Counted from the stretch's first letter, positions 36,803-64,000 are shown. The stretch is DNA of 64,000 nucleotides from a bacterium (GCA_024698685.1 JAILQZ010000002.1:4366-68365), one strand, 5' to 3'. Program-made: numbers and translations. The notes: generated by a model from the letters alone, not told the origin.

Positions 36803-36851
36803 AACTCAGCAACGCCATATCTCTATGGCAGGGACTGCCTAACTCGTGCGC

Positions 36852-37736
36852 TTACTCGCCAGCGAGCTCGAATCCCCACTTCTGCCAGATCTCCTGAGCG
36901 CCCTCGTCTGTCAGGCACCAGTCGATAAAGGCCTGAGCAGCCTGGGAGTTAGCGGAGTTGGCGATGACGGCCGCGGGATAGACGATGTCCTTGTGGGTAT
37001 CGGCAGCAACAGTGCCGACGACCTTGACGCCACCGAAGCGATAGACATCGGAGGTGTAGACGAACGCGATGTCGACGTCGCCGGACTCAGCATGCTTGCA
37101 GACGTTGCCGACGCTGGTGTCGGTGACTACCTTGCCATCGATCGGGGTTCCGGCATATGCATCGGTTCCGTTGGCCTTGCCAGCGCTCTCAGAACCGGTC
37201 TTGCCATCGGGATCGACGAAGCAGCCGACGGTGGAGAGGGACTGGTTGGCATAGTTGCCGGCGGGTACGGAGTCATCGCCGACGGCGACCGTGTACTGGC
37301 CGGAAGCAATGTCATCGAGGGTGACCTCGGCGATCGCATCGTTGTTGGCTGCAGTGACCATAACGAGATCGTTCTTGAACATAGTGGTGCGGCTCGCAGC
37401 ATCGATGTAGCCAGCAGCTTCGGCATCATCCATCTTGCCAGCGGATGCGCTGATCAGGACGTCAGCCTGGCCACCAGCCTCGAGCATCGAGTTGAGCTCG
37501 CCGGAGCTCTTGTACTGGGTATCCGCGAAGGTGACGTTGGGATGCTGCTCGGTGAAGAGGGCCTGAGCCTCCTCCATCGCTTTGGAAAGCGAGTTCGCCG
37601 CGTAGATCTGCAGCGTAACGTCCTCGGTTGGGACCTCGGTTGCCTTCTTGCCCGAGCATCCGCCGAGAAGCGCCACGCAAGCCAGCGAAAGGGCTACGAC
37701 GAGCGACAGCACGACTGCGGAAATCTTCTTCATCAA
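36852..37736 (-). CDS. modA: Molybdate ABC substrate-binding lipoprotein ModA.
   Basis: 294 aa with the lipobox LLGGCSG and ModA-like sequence (...IYAANSLSKAMEEA...VLISASAGKMD...). Confidence 0.85.
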   Translation of the reverse strand: MMKKISAVVLSLVVALSLACVALLGGCSGKKATEVPTEDVTLQIYAANSLSKAMEEAQALFTEQHPNVTFADTQYKSSGELNSMLEAGGQADVLISASAGKMDDAEAAGYIDAASRTTMFKNDLVMVTAANNDAIAEVTLDDIASGQYTVAVGDDSVPAGNYANQSLSTVGCFVDPDGKTGSESAGKANGTDAYAGTPIDGKVVTDTSVGNVCKHAESGDVDIAFVYTSDVYRFGGVKVVGTVAADTHKDIVYPAAVIANSANSQAAQAFIDWCLTDEGAQEIWQKWGFELAGE

Positions 37737-37811
37737 TTGCCTCCTTGTTTGGTATGACCTTGCGCCCTTTGACTCGATTCGGGCGCACTGTATGATTTAA
37801 TTATTCTCCAA

Positions 37812-37831
37812 TTAAAATAATTTTAAGTCAA
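37812..37831 (-). promoter_or_regulatory. AT-rich palindrome abutting a TTGACT -35-like box upstream of modA.
   Basis: ttaaaataattttaa (37812-37826) is a 7-1-7 palindrome. The minus-strand TTGACT is at 37831..37826. The surrounding ~60 nt are far more AT-rich than the rest of the window. Confidence 0.35.
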
Positions 37832-37850
37832 GTATATTCGCGAGACAGAA

Positions 37851-37889
37851 TAGCAAACGGAGGCGCCGCGAGCATGCGCCGCACCTCCG
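37851..37889 (-). terminator. Terminator after the MoaE-like gene.
   Basis: An imperfect 13-bp GC-rich stem spans 37858-37889. On the minus strand it is followed by TTTGCTATT. Confidence 0.55.
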
Positions 37890-37927
37890 ATGATCGCTTC
37901 CGAGAGTGCTCTTCGAGGAGCCTCCCG

Positions 37928-38341
37928 CTATGCGTAGTTCTCGTGCTCGACGACGAGATTCTCCTTGATGTTCCCTACGAGCCTCTGCAGCGCATCGATC
38001 GCATTCGGCCTGATATCCGCTCCGATCAGGACGTACATCAGCGAGTCGCCCACCTTCAGCGTTCCCTCGTTGAGCCACACGCGCACGTAGTGGACGCCAG
38101 GCCAGGTCCTGGCATCGGCGATCGCCCTCTCCAGCCCCTCGGCATCGTATGAGAAGTCGACCGAGACCACCTCGCCGAGCGCCGCACCTGCTGCGCGCTC
38201 CTCATCGGTCTGTGCGCGCGCCTGCTTCTTTGGCGTGATCCTCACAACGCCGTTATGGGTTAGGTACATGCCGATCTCGGCCGCTTCGGGCGAGGCCTTG
38301 GCCTCAGCCAGCCACTGATCGATCGAAGGCGTCTGCTTCAT
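37928..38341 (-). CDS. MoaE-like protein (distant molybdopterin synthase large-subunit family).
   Basis: 137 aa. By eye the pattern G.Y.THNGVVR...VRVWLNEGTLKVGDSLMYVLIGADIRPNAIDALQRLVGNIKE resembles MoaE (G.VR...G.L..GD......V....R..AF.A......LK). No moaD is adjacent. Confidence 0.45.
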   Translation of the reverse strand: MKQTPSIDQWLAEAKASPEAAEIGMYLTHNGVVRITPKKQARAQTDEERAAGAALGEVVSVDFSYDAEGLERAIADARTWPGVHYVRVWLNEGTLKVGDSLMYVLIGADIRPNAIDALQRLVGNIKENLVVEHENYA

Positions 38342-38359
38342 TTTGCGCTCCCTTCCCCT

Positions 38360-39229
38360 CTAGAATGTGCCGCCGTAGACCGGGAAGAAGCTGTGCTCTC
38401 CGTAGTCCTTGATCTGCTCGATGTTCTTCAGCGCCTCCATGTCCTCGTCGGAGATGACGAAGTCGACGTTGGCGTTATCGCGCATGTGGTCTGGGTTGGC
38501 GGTCTTCGGCAGCGAGACCGTGCCTAGCTGCAGAGTGTAGCGCACGCAGAGCGCAGCCACAGAGACGCCGTACTTGGCCGCCATCGCCTTGATCGCCTCG
38601 TTCTTGAACGCCTCGCCGTGGGCAATGGGCGAATACGCCTCGACTACGATGTCGTTGGCCTGGCAATATTCGATGAGCTCCAACGGCGTGTTGGAGATGT
38701 GCGCGAGGATCTGGTTGACCATCGGCTTGATCTCGCAGTTCTCGATGATGTTGTCGAGGTCGCCCTCGAGGAAGTTCGAGACGCCGATCGCGCGCAGCTT
38801 GCCCGCCTTGTAGGCATCCTCGAGTGCGCGCCATGCCGCGATGTTGCCCTCGTAGAACCTGTCCTCGGACTTATTGACCTCCATCCACGGCTGCGGGCTG
38901 TGGATAATCATGAGATCGAGGTAGTCGAGCCCGAGCTTCTCCAATGACGCATCGATTCCGGCCGCCGCTTCCTCGTAGGTCTTGTGCTCGGCTGCCACCT
39001 TGGTGGTGACGAAGAGCTCCTCGCGCGGAATGCCGCTCCTGCGGATGCCTTCGCCGCAGCCGACCTCGTTCTCATAGGCCTGGGCAGTGTCGATGTGGCG
39101 ATAGCCGATCTCGATGGCCTGCTCGACCGCGGTTGCCGCAACCTCGTCAGGGTTGATCAGCCAAGTCCCGAACCCGAGCACCGGGATGTCCGCGCCGTTG
39201 TTCAACTTGATGGTCTCGTTGAAGATCAT
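38360..39229 (-). CDS. Aldo/keto reductase (2,5-diketo-D-gluconate reductase-like).
   Basis: The ORF runs 38360..39247 and begins with GTG. I prefer the ATG at 39229 (MIFNETIKLNNGADIPVLGFGTW), which has AAAGGAAAG 5 nt upstream. Confidence 0.85.
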   Translation of the reverse strand: MIFNETIKLNNGADIPVLGFGTWLINPDEVAATAVEQAIEIGYRHIDTAQAYENEVGCGEGIRRSGIPREELFVTTKVAAEHKTYEEAAAGIDASLEKLGLDYLDLMIIHSPQPWMEVNKSEDRFYEGNIAAWRALEDAYKAGKLRAIGVSNFLEGDLDNIIENCEIKPMVNQILAHISNTPLELIEYCQANDIVVEAYSPIAHGEAFKNEAIKAMAAKYGVSVAALCVRYTLQLGTVSLPKTANPDHMRDNANVDFVISDEDMEALKNIEQIKDYGEHSFFPVYGGTF

Positions 39230-39325
39230 TCTCTTTCCTTTCGTCACATGGGCTCGCCCGATTCAATGCTGTGAATATGGTAGCATTTCCCAAACACGCT
39301 AAGAGCCTCGCGAAGGGAGCCGAGC

Positions 39326-39820
39326 ATGAGCCCGAACATCGACAGCAGCGTCTACATCGCCGAAGGGGCGATAGTCGTCGGTGACGTCACCTTGGGAAGG
39401 GACTGCAACATCTGGCACAACGCCGTACTGCGTGGCGACATCGGCCCGATAGTCGTTGGCGAGGGCACCAGCATCCAGGACAACTGCGTCCTCCACTGCG
39501 GCCCCGGATTCCCCATATCAGTTGGCAATGGAGTCACCATCGGGCACGGAGCGATCGTCCACGGGTGCATGGTGGGCGACAACTCCATGATCGGCATGGG
39601 GGCAACGGTCCTCAACGGCGCTAAGATCGGCAAGAACTGCATCGTGGGAGCGGGCGCGCTGGTCACGCAGGGAACGGAAATCCCCGACGGCAGCATCGCG
39701 TTCGGCAATCCCGCGAAGATCCGCAGGGAAGCAACCGAGAAGGACATCGAGGGCAACCGCCTCAACGCGGAAGGCTACGTGGAGATGGGACGCAAGGCCA
39801 AGCTGGCGCAGGAGGGCTAG
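39326..39820 (+). CDS. Gamma-class carbonic anhydrase / hexapeptide-repeat family protein.
   Basis: 164 aa, with left-handed beta-helix hexapeptide repeats and the motif NIWHNAVLRGD. Confidence 0.8.
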   Translation: MSPNIDSSVYIAEGAIVVGDVTLGRDCNIWHNAVLRGDIGPIVVGEGTSIQDNCVLHCGPGFPISVGNGVTIGHGAIVHGCMVGDNSMIGMGATVLNGAKIGKNCIVGAGALVTQGTEIPDGSIAFGNPAKIRREATEKDIEGNRLNAEGYVEMGRKAKLAQEG

Positions 39821-39865
39821 CGGCCCGTTCCCGACGCTAGCTCACCGCATCCGCCTAAGCCTCAC

Positions 39866-40762
39866 TCAGACCAGATACGGGTTCGGATCGGTAAAAAAAC
39901 CAGGGTCGACCTCCTCGGGCATGCCGTATTTGCCGATCATGATGAACAGGTTGCGGTCCTCCCCGTCGACGGTCTTCTTCCCAAAAGCGCGACCGATGCT
40001 GTACATGCGGTCCCAGTTGTCCAGGAAGCACAGAGTGTCGCTGCGGAAGCCGAAGCGCTCGGCCAGGATCTTCTCCAGGTTCTGCTCCGTGACGCTGACC
40101 AGATACATGGCCTCCTTGATCTTGACGTAATAGGCCTGCTCGTCGCTGCTAGGCATCTCCTGCATCAACTCGCGCAGCTCCTTGGTGGAATCCGGCACCT
40201 CTTGCGTGTCCACCGCGCTCCTCGGGTACGTGATGCGGTACCAATGCGGGTCGTGATAGATGTGGACCGTGGACATGTTGTGCCCGTACACCCAGCGAAC
40301 GCTGGTGCCGGTTACATCGTTGGTGAAGCCATGGCGCCTGATGCCTGTGTGCTCCTTGCCCTCGATGGCGATGTACCCGAAGCCGAAGTGCGATTCGATG
40401 ATGTACGGATAGTATGGGTTCTCCCCCGCCTTGCACAGCAGGAACGTCACCAGCTCCTGCTCCAGGTCGATCACGAAGGTGTGGTTCTCCCGATGCTCCG
40501 TGCCGTCGATGACGAAGGTCAGCAGGTACGTCCAGTCGTCCGACTTCCTGCATTCGTACGCCTCCCGCTTCATCGGGCTGCCGCGGAAGCTCCACTCCAA
40601 CTCCACTCCATCTGCTATCTTGAGCAGATACTCGCCGGCTTCCTCTCCGGTATCCAGAACGAATCGGAATTCCCTTCCCGCGAGCTCGAAGCATTTGGGC
40701 GGGCAGTACTGGTTGATTGATTTTTCCGCTGCTACCGGGCCGAACTTCTCGATAAGATCCAT
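39866..40762 (-). CDS. Hypothetical two-lobed protein, possibly MoaF-family.
   Basis: The ORF runs 39866..40807. I chose the start at MDLIEKFGPVAAEK, preceded by AGGAGG. The N-terminal half (LAGREFRFVLD...YECRKSDDWTYLLTFVI) and C-terminal half (DVTGTSVRWVYGHN...HIYH) resemble my recollection of MoaF N- and C-terminal domains. This is unverified. Confidence 0.4.
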   Translation of the reverse strand: MDLIEKFGPVAAEKSINQYCPPKCFELAGREFRFVLDTGEEAGEYLLKIADGVELEWSFRGSPMKREAYECRKSDDWTYLLTFVIDGTEHRENHTFVIDLEQELVTFLLCKAGENPYYPYIIESHFGFGYIAIEGKEHTGIRRHGFTNDVTGTSVRWVYGHNMSTVHIYHDPHWYRITYPRSAVDTQEVPDSTKELRELMQEMPSSDEQAYYVKIKEAMYLVSVTEQNLEKILAERFGFRSDTLCFLDNWDRMYSIGRAFGKKTVDGEDRNLFIMIGKYGMPEEVDPGFFTDPNPYLV

Positions 40763-40886
40763 GGCGCACGCCTCCTGTTTGCCCTGCGTTTGCAGTTGCC
40801 GCTGCATAGAATGCGACGGCTTCCCCCGAATCAGAACATCAACAGCATTATATTGCGTACTGCCGCACAGAGAAACGGCGGGCGAA

Positions 40887-52787: not shown

Positions 52788-52805
52788 GCATTGGAAGGAA
52801 GCGTC

Positions 52806-53837
52806 GTGAAGGACACTAAAGCAAGGCGCAAGACGAGATGGACGATGTCGTTCATCATACTCGGAGTGCTCCTGATAGTCTTCATGATCCTCAACATCGT
52901 CAAGGGCAGCGTCGACGTGCCCTTCTCCGACGTCATCGCGATCTTCTCAGGCGGTGACGCCAACGAGGTATCGCGGCAGATCGTGCTCTCGATGCGCATG
53001 CCGCGCGCTCTGGCCGCGGTGCTGCTCGGCGGCGCGCTAGCCCTCTCGGGCTACCTGCTGCAGACCTTCTTCCACAACCCGCTGGCCGGCCCGTTCGTCC
53101 TGGGAATCTCCTCGGGCGCAAAGCTGATCGTCGCCATCACGATGGTCTTCTTCCTCGGGTTCGGCATCAAGATGGGCTCGATCGCGATGATCGTCGCGGC
53201 GTTCATCGGCTCGATGATCGCGATGGGCTTCGTGCTGCTGATATCCAAGCGCGTCAACAACATGTCGATGCTGATCGTCGCCGGCATCATGGTCGGCTAC
53301 ATCTGCTCGGCCATCACCGAGTTCATCGTCACATTCGCTGACGACTCCGATATCGTCAACCTGCACAACTGGTCGCTGGGAAGCTTCTCGGGCACCACAT
53401 GGGACAACGTCGGCGTGATGGCGGTCATCGTCATCATCACCACGATCTTCGTCTTCCTGCTCTCCAAGCCGATCTCGGCCTACCAGCTCAGCGAGACATA
53501 CGCGGCCAACATGGGCGTCAACGTCAAGGCCTTCCGCGCGATCCTCGTCCTTCTCTCCAGCCTGCTCTCCGCCTGCGTAACCGCATTCGCCGGCCCGATC
53601 TCGTTTGTCGGAATCGCGGTGCCCCAGATAGTCAAGAACCTGTTCAAATCGTCGAAGCCGCTGCTGATGATACCCGCCTGCTTCGTGGGAGGAGGGGTCT
53701 TCTGCCTCCTCTGCGACCTGCTGGCGCGCATCGCTTTCGCACCCACCGAGCTATCGATCTCGACGGTAACCGCGGTCTTCGGCGCGCCGGTCGTCATCGC
53801 GGTCATGCTCCGCAGGCGCGCTGGGAAGATGGACTGA
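52806..53837 (+). CDS. FecCD/BtuC-family ABC permease (corrinoid/siderophore/heme type).
   Basis: The ORF runs 52791..53837 and begins with TTG. I prefer the GTG at 52806, which follows GGAAGGAAG. It carries the motif RMPRALAAVLLGGALALSGYLLQTFFHNPLAGPFVLGISSGA. Confidence 0.85.
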   Translation: MKDTKARRKTRWTMSFIILGVLLIVFMILNIVKGSVDVPFSDVIAIFSGGDANEVSRQIVLSMRMPRALAAVLLGGALALSGYLLQTFFHNPLAGPFVLGISSGAKLIVAITMVFFLGFGIKMGSIAMIVAAFIGSMIAMGFVLLISKRVNNMSMLIVAGIMVGYICSAITEFIVTFADDSDIVNLHNWSLGSFSGTTWDNVGVMAVIVIITTIFVFLLSKPISAYQLSETYAANMGVNVKAFRAILVLLSSLLSACVTAFAGPISFVGIAVPQIVKNLFKSSKPLLMIPACFVGGGVFCLLCDLLARIAFAPTELSISTVTAVFGAPVVIAVMLRRRAGKMD

Positions 53838-53847
53838 GGTGGTGGCG

Positions 53848-55005
53848 ATGGCTCAGGGCGCAGCTCCTCACGACAAGTACTACTTCACCGCCGAGAAGAT
53901 GACCGTCGGCTACGATGGCGTGCCCTTGATCGAGAACATCGACATCGAGATCGCAAAGGGCGAGATCCTCACGCTCATCGGGCCCAACGGCGCAGGCAAG
54001 TCGACGATTCTCAAGACGATTACCAAGCAGCTCTCGCTGCTCGGCGGCGCTGTCTACCTCAACGGCGAGGACATCCACAAGGTCAATCAGAAGGAGCTCG
54101 CGAAGCAGATCGCGGTCATGCTCACCGAGCGCATCCGCCCCGAGCTCATGACCTGCGAGGACGTCGTCGGAACGGGTCGCTATCCCTACACGGGCAGTCT
54201 GGGCCTGCTCACGGAGGAGGATGAGGCGGTCGTCAAGCGGACGATGGAGCTCGTGCGCATCTCCGAACTGGCCGATCGCGACTTCATGGCGATCAGCGAT
54301 GGCCAGCGCCAGCGCGTCATGCTCGCCAGGGCGATCTGCCAGGAGCCCGAGCTCATGATCCTCGACGAGCCCACCTCCTTCCTCGACATACGCTACAAGC
54401 TCGAGTTTCTCAACATCCTGCAGGAGATGTCGCGCAAGCAGGGAATGACCGTCGTGATGTCGCTGCACGAGCTCGACCTCGCCGAGCGTATCAGCGACAA
54501 GATCCTCTGCGTGCGTGGCAAGACCATCGACCGCTTCGGCACCCCCGACGAGGTCTTCGAGCCCGGATACATCGACAGCCTCTACGAGCTCACCGTCGGC
54601 TCCTACGATGCGTCATCGGGTCGCGTTGAGCTGCCGCGCATCGAGGGCGAGCCGGAGGTATTCGTCATCTCCGGCAACGGCACGGGCACCAGCTTCTTCA
54701 GGCAGCTGCAGCGTCTCTCCGTCCCCTTCGCCACCGGCATCCTCTCGCAAAACGACATCGATTATCCGGTCGCCTCGGTGCTGGCCGCCAACGTGATATC
54801 GGTTCCGGCATTCACCTTCTTCGGCGAGGGCGAGCTCGCGCAGGCGCGCGCGCAGATCGATTCCTGCGGCTGCGTCGTCATAACGCTAGGCAGCGAGGCT
54901 ACGATCCCGCATGAGCTGAACTCGCTGCTCGAATACGCAGCCGGCATTGGCAAGCAGGTCCTCTCCCCCGGCGAATACCTGGCGCAAAGGGCCGCCCAAG
55001 CCTGA
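53848..55005 (+). CDS. FecE/BtuD-family ABC ATPase with a ~125-aa C-terminal extra domain.
   Basis: The ORF runs 53839..55005 and begins with GTG. I prefer the ATG at 53848, which follows GAGGTG. It has Walker A GPNGAGKST and the signature ISDGQRQRVMLARA. Residues after about 262 (EPEVFVISGNGTGTSFF...) lie beyond a normal ABC cassette. Confidence 0.85.
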   Translation: MAQGAAPHDKYYFTAEKMTVGYDGVPLIENIDIEIAKGEILTLIGPNGAGKSTILKTITKQLSLLGGAVYLNGEDIHKVNQKELAKQIAVMLTERIRPELMTCEDVVGTGRYPYTGSLGLLTEEDEAVVKRTMELVRISELADRDFMAISDGQRQRVMLARAICQEPELMILDEPTSFLDIRYKLEFLNILQEMSRKQGMTVVMSLHELDLAERISDKILCVRGKTIDRFGTPDEVFEPGYIDSLYELTVGSYDASSGRVELPRIEGEPEVFVISGNGTGTSFFRQLQRLSVPFATGILSQNDIDYPVASVLAANVISVPAFTFFGEGELAQARAQIDSCGCVVITLGSEATIPHELNSLLEYAAGIGKQVLSPGEYLAQRAAQA

Positions 55006-55161
55006 GGCGCTGGCGATTTCCCCACAGCGAGCCTCCCCCCCCCTGTCGGCATAGGGCGAACAGGGCTATCATTGTTCGTGTAACCGATTGCCCGGGCCCA
55101 ACGCTTGCAGCACCTTGTCCGGGCGCGCCAATAGATACGAACGCGAAAGAGGGAGGTTCCA

Positions 55162-56049
55162 ATGAGCTATGCTCAGAGCCCGAAGGTCAAGTATCCCGAC
55201 GATTACCTGGTTTCACCCGATGCTGAATGGGAGCTCGTCGCCCATACGGACGATTGCATCGTGCTCGAGGGCATAAACTTCGTCGGAGACGAGCTATGGC
55301 TCCTCGACACCGGCCGCGGTCGCATCCTCAAGGTCGAGGGCGACAAGATCGTCGTCGCGCTCCAGAGCGAGAAGGGAATGCCCAACGGAATGAGGCCGCT
55401 CGATGACCACACGATCCTTGTGGCCGACCGCATCCTGGGGCTATGCACCTACGACACCATCACCGGCGAATACGTGGTTCGCTGCACGGGTCTGCCAGAC
55501 GCCCCGTTCATCCACATCGACGACCTCGTGCTAGATGGGCGCGGCGGCGCATACATCACCGACCCCGGCGGCAGCAACTACATCAACCCGTTCGGCCGCG
55601 TATTCTACGTCCGCTACGGCGACGGCAGCTGGGAGTGCGAGGAGTTCCTCAAAGGCATCGCGTTCCCTAACGGAATCACGCTCTCGCCCGACGGGATCTT
55701 CGTCTACATCGCCGAATTCAGTTCCAACACGATCATCGCCGCTCCCTCGAAGCTCTACGACGACGACAAGGAGGCACCCTATGCATTCGCGCGCCTCGTC
55801 GGAGGCATCGGCCCCGACGGGCTCATCACGGACACGCAGGGCAACATCTACGCGGCGCATCTGCACGCAGGCGAGGTCGTGGCCTTCGACAAGAAGGGCT
55901 GGCCGATCGCGGAGATCCGACTCCCCGAATGCGCTGGCGTCGTGAACACCAACCTCTGCATCCACGATGGATACCTCTACACGTGCGAGCTCGAGAAGGG
56001 CGACGTGTGGCGCATCCCGATCAAGGCGGAGCAGCACCAGCTCTCGTAG
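55162..56049 (+). CDS. SMP-30/gluconolactonase/LRE-family beta-propeller protein.
   Basis: 295 aa with the motifs PNGMRPLDD, DDLVLDGRGGAYITD, FPNGITLSPDG and GPDGLITDTQGN. Confidence 0.7.
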   Translation: MSYAQSPKVKYPDDYLVSPDAEWELVAHTDDCIVLEGINFVGDELWLLDTGRGRILKVEGDKIVVALQSEKGMPNGMRPLDDHTILVADRILGLCTYDTITGEYVVRCTGLPDAPFIHIDDLVLDGRGGAYITDPGGSNYINPFGRVFYVRYGDGSWECEEFLKGIAFPNGITLSPDGIFVYIAEFSSNTIIAAPSKLYDDDKEAPYAFARLVGGIGPDGLITDTQGNIYAAHLHAGEVVAFDKKGWPIAEIRLPECAGVVNTNLCIHDGYLYTCELEKGDVWRIPIKAEQHQLS

Positions 56050-56264
56050 CGCGTCGCCGCATATGACGATCGCAGCGAAGCGCCTTGGGATACAGCAATT
56101 ATGGACAACTGCTTCCAGGGCGCTTCCGTTTGCCTCCATTCAATAGCTCGATTTCTAGGCATTTTGTACGCCTTTTTGCGAAAAACCATGCCTTTATCGG
56201 CACTTTTGTCGATTTGCAGAGACCTTTCACCTCTTTCGAATGTAAACTATTCTCGCAATTGCAA

Positions 56265-56480
56265 ATGGCTAGATGGAACGCGCCCACGGGCGCGGGCTGT
56301 TCGAAAGGGCAGCAAGGGGAATGCGGGTGAGAGTCCCGCGCTATACCAGTAACCGTAAGGCTTTGCATCAAGATCCTCTAAGCGATGCAGACGAAGTCGG
56401 AATGCCTTTCCATCGAAAACTTTGTTGCCCTGGATGGCTTTGCGCTCGAATGAATCCTCCAGGAAAAGTTGGCTCCAATG
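56265..56480 (+). promoter_or_regulatory. Cobalamin (B12) riboswitch. Boundaries are approximate.
   Basis: The core is AAGGGGAATGCGGGTGAGAGTCCCGCGCTATACCAGTAACCGTAAGG (about 56313-56360). This compares with the consensus GGGAA..GGTG.A.ATCC...C.GT.CCCGCAACCGTAA. A B12-box-like GAAGTCGGAATGCC lies at 56393-56406. The element sits about 110-320 nt upstream of the cbiK-like gene. Confidence 0.75.
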
Positions 56481-56587
56481 ATGCAGGCGCGACCATGCCC
56501 GGCGCGTTTGCATTTAGGCTGAAGGGTGCGCCCTGAAGCCGGGCAGATTGTCAGCCGGGCAAAAAGAAAAGGAAACGGAGAAAGAAT

Positions 56588-57469
56588 ATGAAGAAGCTAC
56601 TTGTTGCAATCACTGTCGTGGCTGCCCTGTGCGCTGGAATGATCGCAGGTTGCTCCGGCAGCAAGGCCGAGCCGGATCCCACCAAGGAGATCCTGGTCGT
56701 GAGCTTCGGCACCAGCTTCGCCGATAACCGCGAGGAGACCATCGGCGCAGTCGAGAGCGCGATCCAGGAGGCGTTCCCGGAGTGGACCGTCGCTCGCGCG
56801 TTCACCGCTCAGATCATCATCGACAAGGTTGCCAAGGAGGAGGGCGTCGAGATCGATAACTTCGAGCAGGCACTCCAGAGGGCACATGACAACGGCGTCA
56901 CCACGCTCGTCATCCAGCCTACCCACCTGATGCATGGCCTCGAGTACACCGATGTCAAGAACACCCTCGCCCAGTATGAGGACCAGTTCGAGACGGTCGT
57001 CCTGGCAGAGCCGCTGCTCTCCAGCGATGAGGACTTCGAGGCAGTCGCGAAGGCCATCACCGACGCAACCAAGGACAGCGACAACGGCACCACCGCCCTC
57101 GTCTTCATGGGCCATGGCACCGAGGCCGACTCCAACGCAGTCTATGCTAAGATGCAGGGCGTCCTGACCGCTGATGGCTTCGCCAACTACTATGTCGGCA
57201 CCGTCGAGGCAACCCCGTCCCTCGATGACGTCATCGCCGCAATCGACGGTAAGGGCTACACCGATGTCGTCCTCACCCCGCTCATGGTTGTCGCTGGCGA
57301 TCATGCCAACAACGACATGGCTGCTCAGGATGATCCCGAGTCCTGGTACAGCATCCTCACCGCCAAGGGCTATAACGTAACTGCCAATCTCACCGGCCTT
57401 GGCTCGCTCAAGCCGATCCAGGATCTCTACGTTCAGCACACCCAGGCTGCCATCGATAGCATTCAGTAA
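56588..57469 (+). CDS. cbiK: CbiK-type sirohydrochlorin cobaltochelatase homologue with a lipoprotein signal peptide (exported).
   Basis: 293 aa with the lipobox AGMIAGCSG. It is CbiK-like throughout (ILVVSFGTS, FMGHGTE, PLMVVAGDHANNDM). Both catalytic His positions are present. Confidence 0.85.
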   Translation: MKKLLVAITVVAALCAGMIAGCSGSKAEPDPTKEILVVSFGTSFADNREETIGAVESAIQEAFPEWTVARAFTAQIIIDKVAKEEGVEIDNFEQALQRAHDNGVTTLVIQPTHLMHGLEYTDVKNTLAQYEDQFETVVLAEPLLSSDEDFEAVAKAITDATKDSDNGTTALVFMGHGTEADSNAVYAKMQGVLTADGFANYYVGTVEATPSLDDVIAAIDGKGYTDVVLTPLMVVAGDHANNDMAAQDDPESWYSILTAKGYNVTANLTGLGSLKPIQDLYVQHTQAAIDSIQ

Positions 57470-57510
57470 GCGAGTGCAACGCATACGGCAAGCCTGCTAA
57501 TGCAGTCTTG

Positions 57511-57542
57511 GAGCCCCAGATGATTAGCTTCGTCTGGGGCTC
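57511..57542 (+). other. Intercistronic 10-bp-stem hairpin.
   Basis: gagccccaga (57511-57520) pairs with tctggggctc (57533-57542). There is no U-tract, so it is more likely a processing or stability element than a full terminator. Confidence 0.4.
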
Positions 57543-57566
57543 TGAGCACAGAAAGGGAGGTAGGCT

Positions 57567-58769
57567 TTGAAGAAGTTTCTGAGCATGGCGATGTCGCTGG
57601 CGCTCGCGCTCGCGATGTGCTTCGGCATCCCTGCGGCGATCGCCGATGACGGAGTTGCCGGCAGCGACGAGTATGGCGGTCGCGAGGCCGTCGCCAACGA
57701 TGGCATGATCCCCGTCTCGGGCGACCAGCTGCCCGATGGCACCTACAACATCGACGTCATCTCCGATTCCGGGATGTTCAACATCGTCAACTGCGTCCTC
57801 AAGGTGAAGGACGGCAACATGACCGCCACCGTGACGCTCTCCGGCGATGGCTACGACTTCCTCTACATGGGAACCGGCGAGGAGGCCGTCAAGGCCGGAA
57901 CCGCCGCATATTCGGGCTATAAGGAGAACTCGGACGGCAAGTACGAGTACACCGTCGAGGTCTCGGCCCTCAACGAGGGCATTCCCTGCGCGGCGTTCAG
58001 CCACCGCAAGCAGCAGTGGTACGACCACACAATCGTCTTCTCCCCCGCCAAGATCGACAAGGACATCCTGCCTGCAGGAACCTACTGCGCCGAGAGCACC
58101 GATCCATTCAACGGGGCCGGCTACATCGACCTCGAGGACGGTACCTACACGATGGATGTCGAGTTCGCGGGTGGAAGCGGCAAGGCATCGATCAACTCCC
58201 CGGCGAAGCTGACCGTCAAGGACAAGTGCGCCTCCGCCGAGCTCGAGTGGAGCAGCGATGGCTACGACTACCTGGTCGTCAACGGCTACAAGTACCCGAA
58301 GACCAATACCGAGGGCAACTCGAAGTTCGAGATCCCGGTGCTCTGCTACGACAAGCCGATGGACATCATCGGCGACACCACGAAGATGAGCACGCCGCAT
58401 GAGATCGACTACACCCTCACCTTCAAGAAGGACACCGCGAAGGCGGCTGGATCGCTTGGCGGCTCGACCCTGTGGATCATCATCGGCATCGTCGTCATCG
58501 CGGTCATCGTCGTCGCAGCGCTTCTCGTGAGAAAGAGCCGCAAGAAGAAGGCGAGCGACCTGCCGATGACTGCTGCTGCAGCTGAGGAAGCGGTAGAGGA
58601 AGCTGCCGCAGACGCAGCCGATGCCGTCGAAGCTGTCGAAGAGAAGGTCGAGGAGATCGCCGAGACTGCCGAAAACGCAGCTGCCGAGGCCGAAGAGGCC
58701 GCCGAAGAGGTTGCCGAGATCGCAACCGATGTCGCTGACGATGCGGCCGAGGCTATCGAGGAGAACTAG
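57567..58769 (+). CDS. Surface protein with a signal peptide, two tandem ~120-aa beta-rich domains, a single C-terminal TM anchor and an Ala/Glu-rich acidic cytoplasmic tail.
   Basis: 400 aa with a TTG start 6 nt after GAAAGGGAGG. The internal repeat is LPDGTYNIDV...LKVKDGNMTATVTLSGDGYDFLYMG against LEDGTYTMDV...LTVKDKCASAELEWSSDGYDYLVVNG. The TM helix is LWIIIGIVVIAVIVVAALLV, followed by RKSRKKK. Confidence 0.8.
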   Translation: MKKFLSMAMSLALALAMCFGIPAAIADDGVAGSDEYGGREAVANDGMIPVSGDQLPDGTYNIDVISDSGMFNIVNCVLKVKDGNMTATVTLSGDGYDFLYMGTGEEAVKAGTAAYSGYKENSDGKYEYTVEVSALNEGIPCAAFSHRKQQWYDHTIVFSPAKIDKDILPAGTYCAESTDPFNGAGYIDLEDGTYTMDVEFAGGSGKASINSPAKLTVKDKCASAELEWSSDGYDYLVVNGYKYPKTNTEGNSKFEIPVLCYDKPMDIIGDTTKMSTPHEIDYTLTFKKDTAKAAGSLGGSTLWIIIGIVVIAVIVVAALLVRKSRKKKASDLPMTAAAAEEAVEEAAADAADAVEAVEEKVEEIAETAENAAAEAEEAAEEVAEIATDVADDAAEAIEEN

Positions 58770-58772
58770 GCG

Positions 58773-59951
58773 ATGGCAAAGGTTATCACCAAGGCTTTGA
58801 GGCGCGTTGCCGTTGCGATGGCGTGCATCGCGCTCTCCGCCTTCGCGCTGGCTGGCTGCTCTGGGGACAAGAGCATCTCCCCCGAGAACGTCAGCTCCGA
58901 GTTGACGTACGACCACAGCATGGAGCTCAAGTATGCGAAGCTGTTCTCAGTCGACTACTACAACGACGGCTACAAGCTGATCACGCTCGATGGCGAAGGC
59001 AGCTATCTCGTCGTTCCTGAAGGCGCGGCCATCCCAGGCGATCTCTCGCCTGAGATAGTCGTTTTGCAGCAGCCGCTCGACCAGATCTACCTCGTCGCCT
59101 CATCCGCCTTCGATATGTTCAAGGCGATCGACGGCATCGACACGATCCACCTCTCCGGCACCAAGGTCAGCTCCTGGCACATCAAAGAGGCCGTCGACGC
59201 GATGAACTCAGGGAAGATCCTCTACGCGGGCAAGTACAACATCCCCGACTACGAGCTGATCCTCTCCGAAGGTTGCGACCTCGCGATCGAGTCGACGATG
59301 ATCTACCACACCCCCGAGGTAAAGGAGGCGATCGAGGGCTACGGCATCCCGGTATTCGTCGACATGTCGAGTTACGAGGATGAGCCGCTCGGCCGCTCCG
59401 AGTGGGTCAAGGTCTACGGCGCGATGCTGAACAAGGAGGCCGAGGCCGAGGCCGCCTTCGATGCGCAGGAGGCCATGTTCGACGCGGTGGCCGATGAGGT
59501 CGCCGGCACCAGCACGGGCAAAACCATCGCCTTCTTCTACATCACGACGAGCGGCGAGGTCAACGTGCGCAAGTCGACCGACTACGTGCCGAAGATGATC
59601 GCCCTTGCCGGCGGAGAATACGCCTTCTCCGACCTCGAGGGCGACCCCGATAGCAGGACGAGCAGTGTCACGATGCAGATGGAGGACTTCTACAACACCG
59701 CGAAGGACTGCGACATCCTGATCTACAACTCGACGATCACCGGCGAGGTCGATTCCATCGATGAGCTGCTCGGCCTGAGCAGCTTCATGGGCGAATTCAC
59801 CGCGGTGTCGACGGGCAACGTCTGGTGCACCTCGCAGAACATGTATCAGGAGTCGATGCAGCTGGGTTACTTCGTCAAGGACCTCCACACAATCCTCGTC
59901 AACCCAGATGCCTCCGACAGCGAACTCGTCTATCTGCGAAAGCTGCACTAA
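58773..59951 (+). CDS. ABC substrate-binding lipoprotein, BtuF/HmuT/FecB class.
   Basis: 392 aa with the lipobox ALAGCSG. Its layout is that of a class III periplasmic-binding protein (...LQQPLDQIYLVASSAFDMFKAIDGIDTI...). Confidence 0.7.
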   Translation: MAKVITKALRRVAVAMACIALSAFALAGCSGDKSISPENVSSELTYDHSMELKYAKLFSVDYYNDGYKLITLDGEGSYLVVPEGAAIPGDLSPEIVVLQQPLDQIYLVASSAFDMFKAIDGIDTIHLSGTKVSSWHIKEAVDAMNSGKILYAGKYNIPDYELILSEGCDLAIESTMIYHTPEVKEAIEGYGIPVFVDMSSYEDEPLGRSEWVKVYGAMLNKEAEAEAAFDAQEAMFDAVADEVAGTSTGKTIAFFYITTSGEVNVRKSTDYVPKMIALAGGEYAFSDLEGDPDSRTSSVTMQMEDFYNTAKDCDILIYNSTITGEVDSIDELLGLSSFMGEFTAVSTGNVWCTSQNMYQESMQLGYFVKDLHTILVNPDASDSELVYLRKLH

Positions 59952-60018: not shown

Positions 60019-60058
60019 GAAAAGGGTGGCACCCGATAGGGATGCCACCCTTTCATTT
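60019..60058. terminator. Bidirectional terminator between convergent operons.
   Basis: aaagggtggca (60021-60031) pairs with tgccacccttt (60043-60053), flanked by A and T tracts. Confidence 0.75.
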
Positions 60059-60106: not shown

Positions 60107-60454
60107 CTACTTGCAGGTGTAGGGGCCGGGAACGAACAGAACCTGGTTGGGCTTCTTGTCCATCTCGACGATGAGCTCGTCAATCGGTCCGAACCTCATG
60201 ACGCCAGCGAGGCAGTGATGGACGCAGGTGGGAAGCTTGCCCTTGGCCTGACGGTCTGCGCAGAGGTCGCACAGCGAAGTCGGGGTTGGGATCTTGTTCC
60301 AGTTCATCGTCTTCTCGTCGATCTCCCAGGGACCCTCGTCGAGGACCCTGATGCCCCACTTGCCAACGCCGAAGCCATGCTCCTGCTTGCAGGCGATCTC
60401 GCAGGATTGGCAACCAGAGCAGAACTCGTAATCGATCAAAAGGCCGTTTCTCAT
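60107..60454 (-). CDS. Mini-ferredoxin subunit (two predicted [4Fe-4S] clusters) of the molybdopterin oxidoreductase.
   Basis: 115 aa. CSGCQSCEIAC together with CDLC...CVHHC gives 8 Cys in two cluster motifs. It lies 12 nt downstream of the catalytic-subunit gene, with an AGGAGG RBS. Confidence 0.8.
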   Translation of the reverse strand: MRNGLLIDYEFCSGCQSCEIACKQEHGFGVGKWGIRVLDEGPWEIDEKTMNWNKIPTPTSLCDLCADRQAKGKLPTCVHHCLAGVMRFGPIDELIVEMDKKPNQVLFVPGPYTCK

Positions 60455-60466
60455 TGCTAATCCTCC

Positions 60467-62755
60467 TTATTTGTTCAGCTTCTCGATCTTGCAGATGATG
60501 CACTTGAAGGGTGCGCCGAAGCCGAGCTTGCCGACGAACTTGTGTGGCATGAGGTTGTTGATGTTGCAGCGCCAGACTCCGTAGAGATGCGGCTCTTCAG
60601 CATCCTCCTCAGGGAACCAGAAGCCATGCTGGGCGTTTGCAAGGCCCTGCCTGACGACCGGAGTGATCTTGGCCTTGAGCTCGCATCTGCCGAACTCGTT
60701 CTCGACGTTGACCCACTCGCCATCGATGATGCCGAGCTTCTCGGCGTCCTTCGGATTGATCTCGATCCACGGATCGGGATTGAGCTCGCGGAGCAGCGGG
60801 ATCTGCTTGCCCTCGGAGTGGAAGTACGCATAGACGCGCGAACCAGTGGTGAGGACGAACGGATACTCCTCCATCAGCTCCGGAGTGGAGATCGGCGAAC
60901 GCTGCGGCTCCTCGTAGTAGGGCAGCGGATCCTCGCCGAACTGGGCGAACATCGTCGAGTAGAGCTCAACGCGGCCGGTCGGGGTGTTGAATCCCCTCTT
61001 GCGATCGGGACGCAGGAGGCCGAGCTCGTACTTCTTGTAGGTGACCTTGCGCTGGCGGGTGACCTCTTCCTTGAGCTCGTTGTAGTCGATGTTGTTGCCG
61101 AAGCGGAACTCCTCCATGAAGTCGTAGAGGGTCGGGAACTTGGCGTAGTTGTCGGGCATGATCCTGCGGCCGATCTCGTACTGGATCTCGAGGTCGCCCT
61201 TGGTCTCGCCAACCTGGACGGCGTTGACCACGGAACCGGTCATGTTCGGCGATGCGCCGTAGTGGACCGCGACGCCCGACTCCCTCTCGGCGAAGGTGGC
61301 CAGCGGGAGGATGACGTCCGCGCAGCACTGGATCGTCGGGGTGATCCAGCAGTCGGCGGCGAAGACGAAGTCGAGCTTCTGCATGGCGTCATGCCAGCGC
61401 TTGGGCTGTGCGGCGCAGGTTCCTGCGAGCAGGTTGGTGGATGCGATGAAGCCAGCGTGGATCTCATAGGGCTCGCCGGTCTCCATGGCCTCGAGCGTGA
61501 GGTCCGCATGCGAGTTGAGGACGATCGCGACGTAGGCCGGATACTCCTTGAGGCCGATGATCTTGTTCTGAAGCTCAGGACCGAGCGAGCTCCAGCCGAA
61601 ACCGAGGTCGGCCAGGGAGTCGGTCACGTCTCCGAGGAGCTGTCCGCCGGGGACGTCGAGGTTGCCGGTGAGGGCCTCGAGGGCGAGGATGCAGTGTCCA
61701 GCCTGCGCGCCGTTGGCCTTCTGGTCGATCGCGAGACCCCAGAGGATCGCCGCGTTCTGGGCGTTGGCGTACATGCGGGTGGCGCCGTAGATGTCCTCGA
61801 CGTCGATGCCGCAGATCTCGGCGGCTCTCTCGGGAGGCATCGTCGCGACGCGCTCCGCGAGCTGCTCGAATCCGTAGCAGTACAGGCTGACGAACTCCTC
61901 ATCGTAGAGCCCCTCGCTGATGATGATGTTGAGCATCGCCATGCCGAGCGCGGCATCGGTGCCGGGACGCAGCGGCAGGTGATAGACGGCGCGGGTGGCC
62001 AGCCAGTTGGTGCGCGGGTCGACCGAGATGAGCTTGGAACCGCGCTTCATGCAGTCGATGACGGAGTGTCCGAAGAATCCGTCGCCGTTGGAGGGCAGAG
62101 GCTCCTTGCCCCAGGTCATCATGACCTCGGGGATCTTGTACATCGGGTCATCATAGCGCCCCGGCAGACCGCCTGCATAGTCCATCTCGGGATAGGTTGC
62201 GCCGGTGACGAACGTCGCAGCGGCAACGCGCGGGATGTAGCATGCATAGCCCGACTGGGTGTAGCAGGAGTTGGGGGTTCCGAGCATAGCCTGCCCGTAG
62301 GGGCCGCACATCGGGCCGCCCTCGCGGCCGGTTCCTCCGAAGACGACGATGGACTCCGGGCCGTACTTCTCCTTGATGTCCTTGATGTTGGTCTCGATGA
62401 TCTCGTAGGCCTCGTCCCAGGTGATGCGCTCCCACTTGTTCTTGCCGCGATCCTCGAAGGCGCGCTTCATCGGGTAGATGACGCGATCGGGATGGTAGGT
62501 CATGTCCGGGAGGGTCAGGCACCTGACGCACAGGCGGCCCTGGGTGATGGGCTGGTTCTCATCGCCCTCGACCTTCTCCAGGATTCCATCCTCGTTCACG
62601 TAGAATTTGATGCCGCATCCAACAGGATGGCATCCGGGTGCGGACCATGCGCAACCGCGGGTGACGGTATATCCGTCCTCCTCGAACTGCCACGGCTTGT
62701 CGAGGTCGTTGTTGAAGGCCTCGATTCCGCTATCGATTTTCGGTCGTGTTGCCAT
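60467..62755 (-). CDS. Molybdopterin (bis-MGD, DMSO-reductase superfamily) oxidoreductase catalytic subunit with no Tat signal.
   Basis: The ORF runs 60467..63085. I chose the start at MATRPKIDSGIEAFNNDL (ATG 62755), preceded by GGAAAGAAAGG; upstream of that point the ORF overlaps the torD-like gene. The N-terminal Cys cluster is GCAWSAPGCHPVGCG...CVRC. The body is MopB-like. Confidence 0.85.
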   Translation of the reverse strand: MATRPKIDSGIEAFNNDLDKPWQFEEDGYTVTRGCAWSAPGCHPVGCGIKFYVNEDGILEKVEGDENQPITQGRLCVRCLTLPDMTYHPDRVIYPMKRAFEDRGKNKWERITWDEAYEIIETNIKDIKEKYGPESIVVFGGTGREGGPMCGPYGQAMLGTPNSCYTQSGYACYIPRVAAATFVTGATYPEMDYAGGLPGRYDDPMYKIPEVMMTWGKEPLPSNGDGFFGHSVIDCMKRGSKLISVDPRTNWLATRAVYHLPLRPGTDAALGMAMLNIIISEGLYDEEFVSLYCYGFEQLAERVATMPPERAAEICGIDVEDIYGATRMYANAQNAAILWGLAIDQKANGAQAGHCILALEALTGNLDVPGGQLLGDVTDSLADLGFGWSSLGPELQNKIIGLKEYPAYVAIVLNSHADLTLEAMETGEPYEIHAGFIASTNLLAGTCAAQPKRWHDAMQKLDFVFAADCWITPTIQCCADVILPLATFAERESGVAVHYGASPNMTGSVVNAVQVGETKGDLEIQYEIGRRIMPDNYAKFPTLYDFMEEFRFGNNIDYNELKEEVTRQRKVTYKKYELGLLRPDRKRGFNTPTGRVELYSTMFAQFGEDPLPYYEEPQRSPISTPELMEEYPFVLTTGSRVYAYFHSEGKQIPLLRELNPDPWIEINPKDAEKLGIIDGEWVNVENEFGRCELKAKITPVVRQGLANAQHGFWFPEEDAEEPHLYGVWRCNINNLMPHKFVGKLGFGAPFKCIICKIEKLNK

Positions 62756-62829
62756 AGCGTACCTTTCTTTCCTTTTCCATTTATATGCAGGCGTCCACCT
62801 GTGCAAACCTGCAGGCAGAGCGCCCTTTT

Positions 62830-63525
62830 TCACAACTCCAAAGCCTGCGAGATGCGATCTCTGTCGGCCTCCAGGACTGCCAGCGCGAGCTTTGCGAGCG
62901 CGCTGTAGAAGGCGGTCTCGGAGAATTGCTGGACGAGCTGGGCGAACTGCGGAACCCATGTGAGCATGTGAGCGTCGATGAAGTCCCTTTGCTCTCGCAG
63001 ATATCCCTCGGCCTTGCTCGGCTCGCCCTCGCGCACGGCCAGGATCTCCTGCCCGGTGAGGAACTGCATGAACTCGAGCTCGCACGCGATGTGGTCGTCG
63101 AAATCGATGCGAGTTTTGGTTGGGCGGAATCCGTAGGCGTTGTAGGTGGCGGTAACATCGAGGGTGCTCTCTTGAAGCAGGCTGCCGTTGCGCGAGACGT
63201 AGACCGACTCGTAGGGAACCGCAGCCCTCGGCCCCTTGGGCCTGTTCTTGTCGTTGGGATCCGGAGGGTATCCGATGAACGATATGACGTAGTCGATCGC
63301 AAGATTGGACTTGGTGCGATCGTTCGCCTCATCGAGGTATGCCCTCATCTCGGCATAGGAAGCGTCGATAGCCTCGTTGCCCGATGGCTCGGGAACGGGG
63401 CTATCGATCAGATCCTTGAGAAGCGGCGCGTCGATTTCCAGCCTGAACAGGCGCGAGAGCATTGCATAGTCCTCGTACCTTTCCTGAAGAAGCTCCTCGG
63501 AAAGCATCCTGTCCAGGCTCGACAT
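62830..63525 (-). CDS. TorD/DmsD-family cofactor-insertion chaperone.
   Basis: 231 aa. The motifs YAMLSRLFRLEID and DHIACELEFMQFL are typical of TorD-like chaperones. Confidence 0.75.
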   Translation of the reverse strand: MSSLDRMLSEELLQERYEDYAMLSRLFRLEIDAPLLKDLIDSPVPEPSGNEAIDASYAEMRAYLDEANDRTKSNLAIDYVISFIGYPPDPNDKNRPKGPRAAVPYESVYVSRNGSLLQESTLDVTATYNAYGFRPTKTRIDFDDHIACELEFMQFLTGQEILAVREGEPSKAEGYLREQRDFIDAHMLTWVPQFAQLVQQFSETAFYSALAKLALAVLEADRDRISQALEL

Positions 63526-63540
63526 CGCTAGTATCGCCGC

Positions 63541-63888
63541 CTAGCCGTAGTGATAGGGCTGGGGAACGAAGAGAACCTGGTTGGGCTTGAGTTCAAGCTC
63601 CTTGGCCAGCTCCTCGACCGTTCCATACTGCATGACGCCAGCCAGGCAATGATGCACGCAGAAAGGCTGCTTGCCCTTGGACGTCCTGTCTTCGCAGAGG
63701 TCGCAAAGACGCGTGGGAACCGGGATCTTGTTCCAGTTGTACTTGCCGTCGGAGCACTTCCAGGGGCCGTCGTCGAGAAGGCGGATGCCCCACTGGCCTA
63801 CCGGGATGCCGTGCTCTTCCTTGCAGGCTACCTCACAAGATTGGCAACCGGTGCAGAACTCGTAATCGATCAGAAGTCCGTATGCCAT
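63541..63888 (-). CDS. Mini-ferredoxin subunit, paralogue of 60107..60454.
   Basis: 115 aa, beginning MAYGLLIDYEFCTGCQSCEVACKEEHG. It has the same length and Cys pattern as the first copy. Confidence 0.8.
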   Translation of the reverse strand: MAYGLLIDYEFCTGCQSCEVACKEEHGIPVGQWGIRLLDDGPWKCSDGKYNWNKIPVPTRLCDLCEDRTSKGKQPFCVHHCLAGVMQYGTVEELAKELELKPNQVLFVPQPYHYG

Positions 63889-64000
63889 TATTCAATCACC
63901 AGCTTTCCGAAGCGATCCCAGATCTCCTGCATGTCGGTATCGTAGTTCTCGTTGATCGGCTCGACGGAGCAGATCATGCACTTGAAGTCAGCGCCGAATC
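63888..64000 (-). CDS. 3' end of a second molybdopterin oxidoreductase catalytic-subunit gene. The 5' part lies outside the window.
   Basis: My translation of the minus strand gives ...FGADFKCMICSVEPINENYDTDMQEIWDRFGKLVIE*. It aligns with the C-terminus FGAPFKCIICKIEKLNK* of 60467..62755. Its TAA overlaps the next gene's ATG (TAATG). Confidence 0.7.
   Translation of the reverse strand, partial: FGADFKCMICSVEPINENYDTDMQEIWDRFGKLVIE

Follow-up and report, generated by a model that had tools for sequence, protein, structure and literature searches.

A bacterial operon probably encoding two cytoplasmic Gordonibacter-type catechol dehydroxylase-family reductases and one maturation chaperone

Catechol dehydroxylases of two types have been described. 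The Eggerthella-type enzymes (Dadh, Cadh, El Hcdh) are proteins of ~950-1200 aa that carry twin-arginine translocation (Tat) signals and operate with a four-cluster B subunit and a membrane anchor; they rely on shared accessory genes, and the TorD-like protein DadhF is required (PMC11887054). The Gordonibacter-type subclass is characterised by a smaller, Tat-less catalytic subunit with an adjacent small 4Fe-4S partner, predicted to be cytoplasmic, and its genes often, but not universally, adjoin MFS transporters and membrane-bound LuxR-type regulators (PMC7028382, PMC11585353, PMC11887054). The present analysis concerns a stretch of bacterial DNA of 64,000 nucleotides (GCA_024698685.1 JAILQZ010000002.1:4366-68365, here called the window), whose minus strand carries at 60107-64000 the distal end of one operon for two paralogous cytoplasmic two-subunit enzymes, each made of a molybdenum-dependent catalytic subunit (Mo1, Mo2) and a small ferredoxin (Fd1, Fd2), and for one chaperone. 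Judged from sequence, and with a probability of about 0.68, Mo1 and Mo2 are two cytoplasmic reductases of the Gordonibacter-type catechol dehydroxylase family, encoded together with one maturation chaperone in a single operon. They would share superfamily and chemistry with the Eggerthella-type enzymes but differ from them in size, signal sequence, B subunit and membrane anchor. The elements concerned, listed in the direction of transcription, are:

63891-63998, minus strand: end of Mo2 (36 codons), followed by a TAA stop at 63888-63890 that shares one base with the Fd2 ATG
63541-63888, minus strand: Fd2, 115 aa, 2x[4Fe-4S] ferredoxin, putative partner of Mo2 (Fer4_11 match)
62830-63525, minus strand: maturation chaperone of the TorD/NarJ/DmsD family, 231 aa (PF02613; conserved DDHIACELEFMQ motif)
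62756-62829, minus strand: spacer of 74 nt separating Mo1 from the chaperone gene; contains the ribosome-binding site GGAAAGAAAGG
60467-62755, minus strand: Mo1, 762 aa from MATRPKIDSG, Tat-less catalytic subunit of the bis-molybdopterin guanine dinucleotide (bis-MGD) type, with GGAAAGAAAGG upstream
60107-60454, minus strand: Fd1, 115 aa, 2x[4Fe-4S] ferredoxin, putative partner of Mo1 (Fer4_11 and partial DmsB-family matches)
~60021-60053, minus strand: intrinsic terminator hairpin with a 15-bp stem and a 5-nt loop, then UUUU (inverted-repeat search and folding)

From 5' to 3' the operon thus reads Mo2 C-terminus, Fd2, TorD-like protein, Mo1, Fd1 and terminator. An initial annotation of this DNA had given the same gene order, with a 762-aa molybdenum enzyme, 115-aa ferredoxins and a terminator, all of which are borne out, and the C-termini that it had quoted as evidence for two divergent copies match the sequence exactly. 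Mo1 and Fd1 are separated by 12 nt. A simple consensus terminator scan found nothing in the 74-nt spacer between the chaperone gene and Mo1, and nothing 3' of Fd1. The hairpin, revealed by the inverted-repeat search and folding, has a stability of -28.5 kcal/mol (z = -6.4; 0/200 shuffles equally stable); it is placed between the operon and a convergent plus-strand gene for a binding protein and is palindromic enough for termination in both directions. Elsewhere the 64-kb window has no MopB gene, and the TorD-like gene is the only one of its kind in it.

The Pfam matches of Mo1 (PF00384, 2.7e-30; PF01568, 1.1e-20; PF04879, 4.8e-7) correspond to molybdopterin oxidoreductase, MGD-binding and N-terminal Fe4S4 domains and place it in the MopB/DMSO reductase superfamily of bis-MGD enzymes. 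The mechanical open reading frame (ORF) reaches 63085, that is, 110 codons upstream of the MATRPKIDSG start; this extension is taken as non-coding because its GC content at third codon positions is low (0.39, compared with 0.87 for the Mo1 gene) and because it overlaps the chaperone gene. Neither a twin-arginine (RR) motif nor a hydrophobic stretch is present in Mo1, Mo2 or the 110-codon extension, so that the absence of a Tat signal reported by the initial annotation holds from any start. With 762 aa and 780 aa, respectively, Mo1 and Mo2 lie within the 740-860 aa range of the Gordonibacter-type enzymes.

The ranking of solved structures against Mo1 was headed by acetylene hydratase (2.4e-85, 290 bits), followed by thiosulfate/polysulfide reductase (186 bits), FdhF (174), DMSO reductase (111) and pyrogallol transhydroxylase (47); no catechol dehydroxylase with a solved structure was found. 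Acetylene hydratase as the top solved relative is a published signature of catechol dehydroxylases, the criterion being closer similarity to acetylene hydratase and known catechol dehydroxylases than to any other characterised MopB enzyme, with >30% identity and E < 1e-34 (PMC7028382). The structure ranking agrees with it, as do the identities of Mo1 and Mo2 in a reference comparison over the N-terminal ~400 aa. The reference set consisted of the first ~400 residues of all Coriobacteriia homologues, taken from a supplementary table of PMC11887054, with locus tags linked to enzyme names through the text (Dodh, C1877_13905), primers ((-)-Eddh, C1877_07250) and proteomics tables (Gp Hcdh, C1877_07565). 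Mo2 and Mo1 were found to be 82% and 71% identical, respectively, to C1877_07290 of G. pamelaeae. Over ~380-400 aa both share 45-47% identity with (-)-Eddh and 41-45% with Dodh, the range for the characterised Gordonibacter-type enzymes as a whole being 41-52% over the first 400 aa; the similarity to an Eggerthella lenta Dadh-type enzyme (33-35%) extends over only 250 aa. In a neighbour-joining tree, Mo1 was sister to a group of Mo2, C1877_07290 and C1878_02695 (95% bootstrap), together with which it made up a separate subclade of the Gordonibacter-type enzymes, while acetylene hydratase branched outside the Gordonibacter type and the Eggerthella-type enzymes farther out; only shallow clades are used here, because the deep nodes are weakly supported. 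Mo1 and Mo2 fell outside formate dehydrogenase and DMSO reductase, and none of the NCBIfam equivalog cut-offs was reached by Mo1, the best score being that of Fdh-alpha (TIGR01591; 265.6 bits, cut-off 666.25).

The traits held in common with Dodh, (-)-Eddh, Gs Vadh and Gp Hcdh include the Tat-less catalytic subunit of 740-860 aa, the adjacent small Fe-S 'B' subunit, the absence of an anchor, an N-terminal KPW..EEDG.TVTR leader, an invariant Cys in SGxxCYxPR and acetylene hydratase as the nearest solved structure. The lead offered by the initial annotation, which pointed to the Gordonibacter-type catechol dehydroxylases and their many orphan paralogues, is therefore supported by structure ranking, identities and tree. 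The same annotation had regarded four features as unusual (no Tat signal, no membrane-anchor subunit, a minimal ferredoxin and an odd cysteine spacing), and this view has to be abandoned: since the published descriptions present the Gordonibacter type in this way, these features amount to the definition of the subclass (PMC7028382, PMC11887054), the Cys motif being shared with Gs Vadh.

The sequence beyond the window could be approached through a relative. An exact look-up gave no identical copy of Mo1 on record, and the 99% identical protein P0001, from a sheep-duodenum metagenome-assembled genome (MAG), was used as a stand-in; within the 6.9 kb that the ENA contig carrying it (L001) has in common with the window, DNA identity is 93.9%. 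On L001 the operon starts with a small gene for an FKBP-type isomerase, followed by the 780-aa Mo2, whose end is 100% identical to the 36 Mo2 residues of the window. An OYE-type flavoenzyme gene on the opposite strand and a third module, Mo3-Fd3, are found farther upstream. A gene for a membrane anchor is missing both from the window and from the 10 kb that L001 adds to it, and these 10 kb contain no Tat-bearing subunit either; this agrees with the claim that the system lacks a membrane-anchor subunit. As to Mo3 (L001:1-2529), it has been called too short at 720 aa: the frame runs on upstream to MTMSSEWKTELEDGSVVVRTCGWSPPGDHPVGCG, and this extension restores the cluster motif with Asp replacing the second Cys. 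In the tree Mo3 is joined with 95% bootstrap support to Gp Hcdh, a hydrocaffeic acid dehydroxylase to which it is 57% identical.

MAGs from the gut of humans, goats and buffaloes, some of these MAGs being labelled Ellagibacter, contain Mo1 orthologues (83%) in variable surroundings. One relative presents an island with MFS, LuxR (509 aa) and MFS genes, a Mo2 orthologue with its ferredoxin, TorD and DUF1883 genes, and a 788-aa paralogue with a ferredoxin, continuing with FKBP, a 92-aa Cys-rich protein, a 777-aa Mo2 copy devoid of its own ferredoxin and the Mo1 orthologue; the Mo2 orthologue of this relative was seen on 310 contigs. On contig L003 the Mo1 orthologue is followed by Fd1 and two OYE-type flavoenzymes, and MFS or membrane-type LuxR genes stand near orthologues on L013-15, L009 and L005. 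The arrangement in the window is a compact variant of this plastic paralogue island, which resembles the 'hypervariable' dehydroxylase clusters of Eggerthella with their shared accessory genes (PMC11887054). Two island genes of L013 are absent from the compact version: that for the 92-aa protein rich in CxxC pairs (MCYPCTNCGRCGKF...CLKCGG...CEQCG; L013:17340-17618) and that for the DUF1883 protein (L013:13487-13807).

Several points weigh against the assignment to the Gordonibacter-type family or limit what it can convey. The full length of Mo2 is known from the 93.9%-identical L001 and not from the window itself. The tree was built by a fast distance method from 385 N-terminal columns with 100 bootstraps, the references being represented by their first ~400 aa, and the node joining the Mo1/Mo2 group to Gs Vadh received 49% support. 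An AlphaFold2 model of Mo1, computed from a low-diversity alignment of 20 sequences, was too poor for cluster geometry (mean predicted local distance difference test, 47; predicted template modelling score, 0.35). Neither a LuxR regulator nor an MFS transporter turned up within the window or L001's upstream 10 kb, a difference from the characterised Gordonibacter-type loci over the stretch covered; on L001 the regulator of the operon must be farther upstream of Mo1 than 10 kb, if it is not elsewhere. The group of C1877_07290 corresponds to cluster '8' of the published sequence-similarity network, which has no assigned function, and a literature search found no papers naming C1877_07290, C1878_02695 or their UniProt identifiers. 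Finally, no substrate can be transferred to Mo1 or Mo2, because identity to the closest characterised enzymes reaches only ~45-50% and the network required 72% to separate known specificities.

The best of the alternatives is that Mo1 and Mo2 have the same fold put to another chemistry (a non-catechol phenol, a C-O, N-O or S-O bond, or a steroid or host metabolite) and share with the catechol dehydroxylases ancestry alone. According to a published survey, 121/126 clusters of the family are so far without known function, which leaves room for such enzymes, as do the identities of below 50% to any characterised member and the weakly supported linking node; moreover, polyphenol-specific genes, such as one for an Eah-type decarboxylase, are missing from the window and from L001's upstream 10 kb. 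However, the Gordonibacter-type members characterised so far, namely Dodh, (-)-Eddh, (+)-Eldh1/2, Gs Vadh, Gp Hcdh and Eadh1-3, all take off a catecholic hydroxyl, the orthologous loci display the MFS and membrane LuxR context typical of catechol dehydroxylases, and the OYE-type ene-reductases found in them fit polyphenol pathways. A different chemistry is accordingly considered unlikely.

Under the preferred reading of Mo1 and Mo2 as two catechol dehydroxylase-family reductases, the next issue is whether they do the same work. The two proteins, which would have arisen through duplication of one Mo-Fd module, are 64.6% identical overall, with identity falling to 47-59% in residues ~400-570. 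Most of this block is conserved within the Mo1 group: residues ~400-520 are 83-96% conserved between Mo1 orthologues of different genomes, those at ~520-570 varying even there. The pattern appears to fit diverged specificity better than drift, and since the differing block is conserved within each orthologue group, Mo1 and Mo2 most likely act on different substrates or ring positions, which makes the two substrate specificities proposed in the initial annotation plausible. The opposite view, that the pair is isofunctional (same substrate and position) and retained for dosage or differential regulation, seems improbable. Mo1 and Mo2 are indeed mutually closest paralogues (95% bootstrap), and natural mosaics and gene-conversion tracts point to sequence exchange between the copies; yet their 65% identity is below the 72% level that separates known specificities, the divergence is focused in a block that is mostly conserved among Mo1 orthologues, and both orthologue groups coexist across several genera.

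Mosaics of the two paralogues occur naturally. P0009 and P0010 change from Mo2-like to Mo1-like after the first ~375-400 residues and lie on contigs of 213-358 kb; P0014 is the reverse, with a Mo1-like N-terminus and a remainder 100% identical to Mo2, and it could be an assembly chimera because its contig is only 3.5 kb. The extra 777-aa copy at L013:17615-19948 is 83% identical to the Mo2 orthologue overall and 96-98% in two tracts, which suggests gene conversion.

A precedent for different roles of adjacent enzymes is the ellagic acid metabolism (eam) cluster of Gordonibacter and Ellagibacter, which likewise encodes a pair of Gordonibacter-type dehydroxylases that have a 4Fe-4S partner each: the adjacent Eadh1 and Eadh2 act on different hydroxyls of one substrate family, the urolithins. 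A tentative and rather doubtful idea is that Mo1 and Mo2 act sequentially on two hydroxyls of one polyphenol. In contrast to the eam cluster, no Eah-type decarboxylase, MFS or LuxR gene accompanies Mo1 and Mo2 over the stretch covered. Candidate, unconfirmed Eadh-like pairs (C1878_05450/05460 and F8C90_09990/10000) carry a CHDGCG motif and are only 45-47% identical to Mo1/Mo2; orthology to the eam Eadh pair was ruled out by the different motif, this level of identity and the lack of Eah over the stretch covered.

The N-terminal cysteines of Mo1 are arranged as C35-x6-C42-x4-C47...C76-x2-C79, exactly the C-x6-C-x4-C...C-x2-C spacing described in the initial annotation, and these five residues are the candidate ligands of the N-terminal cluster (FS0). 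The purified Gs Vadh (C1878_02750) carries the same CAWSPPGCHPVGCG...CxRC, the pattern being CAWSxPGCHPxGCG...CxRC, so the odd spacing is a trait of the subfamily. Among 32 aligned sequences, Cys is found at position 35 in 14, at 42 in 25, at 47 in 29, at 76 in 30 and at 79 in 26. Members with Asp at 42 retain C35, and many members without C35 retain C42; C35 and C42 may thus substitute for each other, with C79 possibly standing in for the first Cys missing from the standard motif. The purified and active Gp Hcdh (C1877_07565; cf. F8C90_02380) has none of the N-terminal [4Fe-4S] cysteines, the four positions being occupied by S, Y, N and N. Regarding the active site, all 32 sequences have Cys172, which corresponds in the alignment to Cys141, the residue that binds tungsten in acetylene hydratase; Cys172 is the probable molybdenum ligand of Mo1. 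The catalytic Asp13 of acetylene hydratase is replaced by His43 in Mo1 (His in 27/32 family members), and the (Se)Cys-His pair of formate dehydrogenase by Cys172-Tyr173.

A last explanation, by which Mo1 would be an acetylene-hydratase-like non-redox hydratase, a cytoplasmic formate dehydrogenase or another known MopB reductase, can draw on the top solved match and on the highest partial NCBIfam score (Fdh-alpha), but it is very improbable given His43 in place of Asp13, which disfavours hydratase function, the lack of a ferredoxin partner in acetylene hydratase, an Fdh-alpha score far below the cut-off, Cys172-Tyr173 instead of (Se)Cys-His and the wide failure of the other equivalogs. Acetylene hydratase (Pelobacter acetylenicus, 2e7z) is also cytoplasmic and Tat-less, with an N-terminal [4Fe-4S] cluster and an aligned Cys metal ligand, but differs from Mo1/Mo2 in being monomeric and non-redox and in having Asp13, a C-x2-C-x3-C motif and no N-terminal leader. 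Among the functions considered, formate dehydrogenase, DMSO/TMAO reductase, thiosulfate/polysulfide reductase, nitrate reductase and pyrogallol transhydroxylase were ruled out by NCBIfam and structure scores, and acetylene hydratase by the His for Asp13 exchange.

In the operon of the two putative dehydroxylases, one ferredoxin gene lies directly downstream of each catalytic gene. Fd1 and Fd2 are 68.8% identical and have nine Cys each, eight of which are invariant across five paralogues (CxxCxxCxxxC...CxxCx11CxxxC) and the ninth variable; in Fd1 the conserved ones are 12, 15, 18, 22 and 62, 65, 77, 81, and the other is C114. The description of the partner as a minimal 8-Cys protein thus stands as far as a small two-group ferredoxin is concerned, with the count corrected to nine. 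The alignment of Fd1 with the beta subunit (214 aa) of Desulfovibrio gigas formate dehydrogenase covers residues 3-27 and 121-169 of the latter and skips the middle, and the NCBIfam DmsB, ArrB and TtrB models match the ferredoxins in the same split manner (DmsB: 56-58 bits, cut-off 214). Where a four-cluster DmsB/NarH-type subunit has four Cys groups in ~200 aa or more, the ferredoxins have the first and last groups only. The two clusters of a NarH-type subunit that lie closest to the catalytic subunit are those formed by the first and the last group. Because these are the groups retained, the 115-aa ferredoxin represents the proximal two-cluster half (FS1/FS2) without the half that faces the anchor. 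A different arrangement is seen in some relatives, in which a 777-aa Mo2-like gene is followed after ~120 nt by the Mo1 orthologue and then by a single ferredoxin gene (L003:7556-12648, L013:17615-22340, and L002, L004, L005 and L006); in those genomes (L002-L006, L013), two catalytic subunits may share one Fe-S partner.

The chaperone matches PF02613 (Nitrate_red_del) with 7.4e-29 and reaches 79 bits against the TorD equivalog model, below the cut-off of 132; it is not a TorD, DmsD or EbdD equivalog. Its slot after Mo2-Fd2 is conserved in L003, L007, L009 and L013-15, making Mo2-Fd2-TorD a conserved unit in which the chaperone is 43-48% identical where the enzymes are ~80%. The initial annotation had the two modules sharing one chaperone: there is indeed a single TorD-like gene in the window, and the sharing itself is suggested by gene order. 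The presence of this gene inside the operon sets the locus apart from the characterised Gordonibacter-type systems; no description of a TorD-family chaperone within an operon of Tat-less Gordonibacter-type enzymes was found, which adds only a modestly new detail.

A parallel exists in NarG-NarJ, in which a Tat-less cytoplasmic MopB enzyme has a TorD/NarJ-family chaperone from the same operon, NarGHI being membrane-bound through NarI and NarH carrying four clusters. The similarity of Mo1 to the narG model is very low (27.5 bits). The Gordonibacter-type enzymes have a conserved N-terminal leader of ~30 residues, D-L-x-K-P-W-x-[FY]-E-E-D-G-x-T-V-T-R, which acetylene hydratase lacks. A tentative and on balance rather doubtful idea is that the TorD-like protein is a dedicated cytoplasmic cofactor-insertion chaperone that reads this leader, as NarJ reads the vestigial leader of NarG, the soluble enzymes being descended from exported ones.

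Put together, the two modules may work as follows. As expected from its family, the TorD-like protein would keep each apo catalytic subunit in the cytoplasm until the bis-MGD molybdenum cofactor is inserted, whereupon the subunit would pair with its own 115-aa ferredoxin, whose alignment marks it as the FS1/FS2 half. A low-potential cytoplasmic donor (reduced ferredoxin, or H2 or formate oxidation) would feed the two clusters, in line with Gordonibacter physiology, where H2 and reduced ferredoxin drive dehydroxylation. From the ferredoxin, electrons would pass to the N-terminal [4Fe-4S] cluster (FS0) and on to the molybdenum presumably held by Cys172, if the alignment with acetylene hydratase is a guide. 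By analogy with the characterised relatives, the molybdenum centre would then reductively strip one hydroxyl of a catechol-type aromatic as water.

Elsewhere in the window, a molybdenum supply block lies at 33122-40807, ~20 kb from the operon, comprising MoaA (33122-34123), a ModABC-like ABC transporter (34192-37736) and a protein with a MoaF N-terminal domain (39866-40807). The block at 42-52 kb looks like cobalamin biosynthesis genes, judged from the first residues of the ORFs. Plus-strand neighbours converge on the operon at 52791-59951 and look like a metal or corrinoid uptake unit:

52791-53837, plus strand: putative FecCD-type permease, read from its position and membrane-like N-terminus
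following the 52791-53837 ORF, plus strand: ABC ATPase with a 130-aa C-terminal extension
55162-56049, plus strand: SMP-30/gluconolactonase-like protein
56588-57469, plus strand: CbiK cobalt chelatase with a lipoprotein-like signal
57567-58769, plus strand: 400-aa protein with no Pfam match, an anchor-like hydrophobic stretch near the C-terminus and an acidic tail
58773-59951, plus strand: Peripla_BP_2 binding protein

At the other end of the window (1-5344, minus strand), two large tandem genes encode proteins of at least 898 aa and of 831 aa with near-identical signal-peptide N-termini (M[TR]GI[VA]RKAATKLL...AQAATDTITRV), which look like paralogous secreted or surface proteins.

The enzyme class to which Mo1 and Mo2 are assigned is already known as one by which gut bacteria remove hydroxyl groups from polyphenols of the diet; as new orphan members they leave the knowledge of the class unchanged. 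Orthologues of the two enzymes are common in public assemblies, which are mostly of gut origin, and the Mo1 orthologue cluster at 90% identity comprises 920 member sequences. The leads offered by the locus are the ~400-570 block that separates the paralogues, the Mo2-Fd-TorD unit, and the LuxR regulators of the orthologous loci for guessing the inducer. If the chaperone did read the N-terminal leader, it could be a missing factor for expressing the class outside Coriobacteriia. Which bioactive metabolites of polyphenols and catecholamines become available to the host is determined by catechol dehydroxylases, a family to which the locus contributes two intact orphan members.

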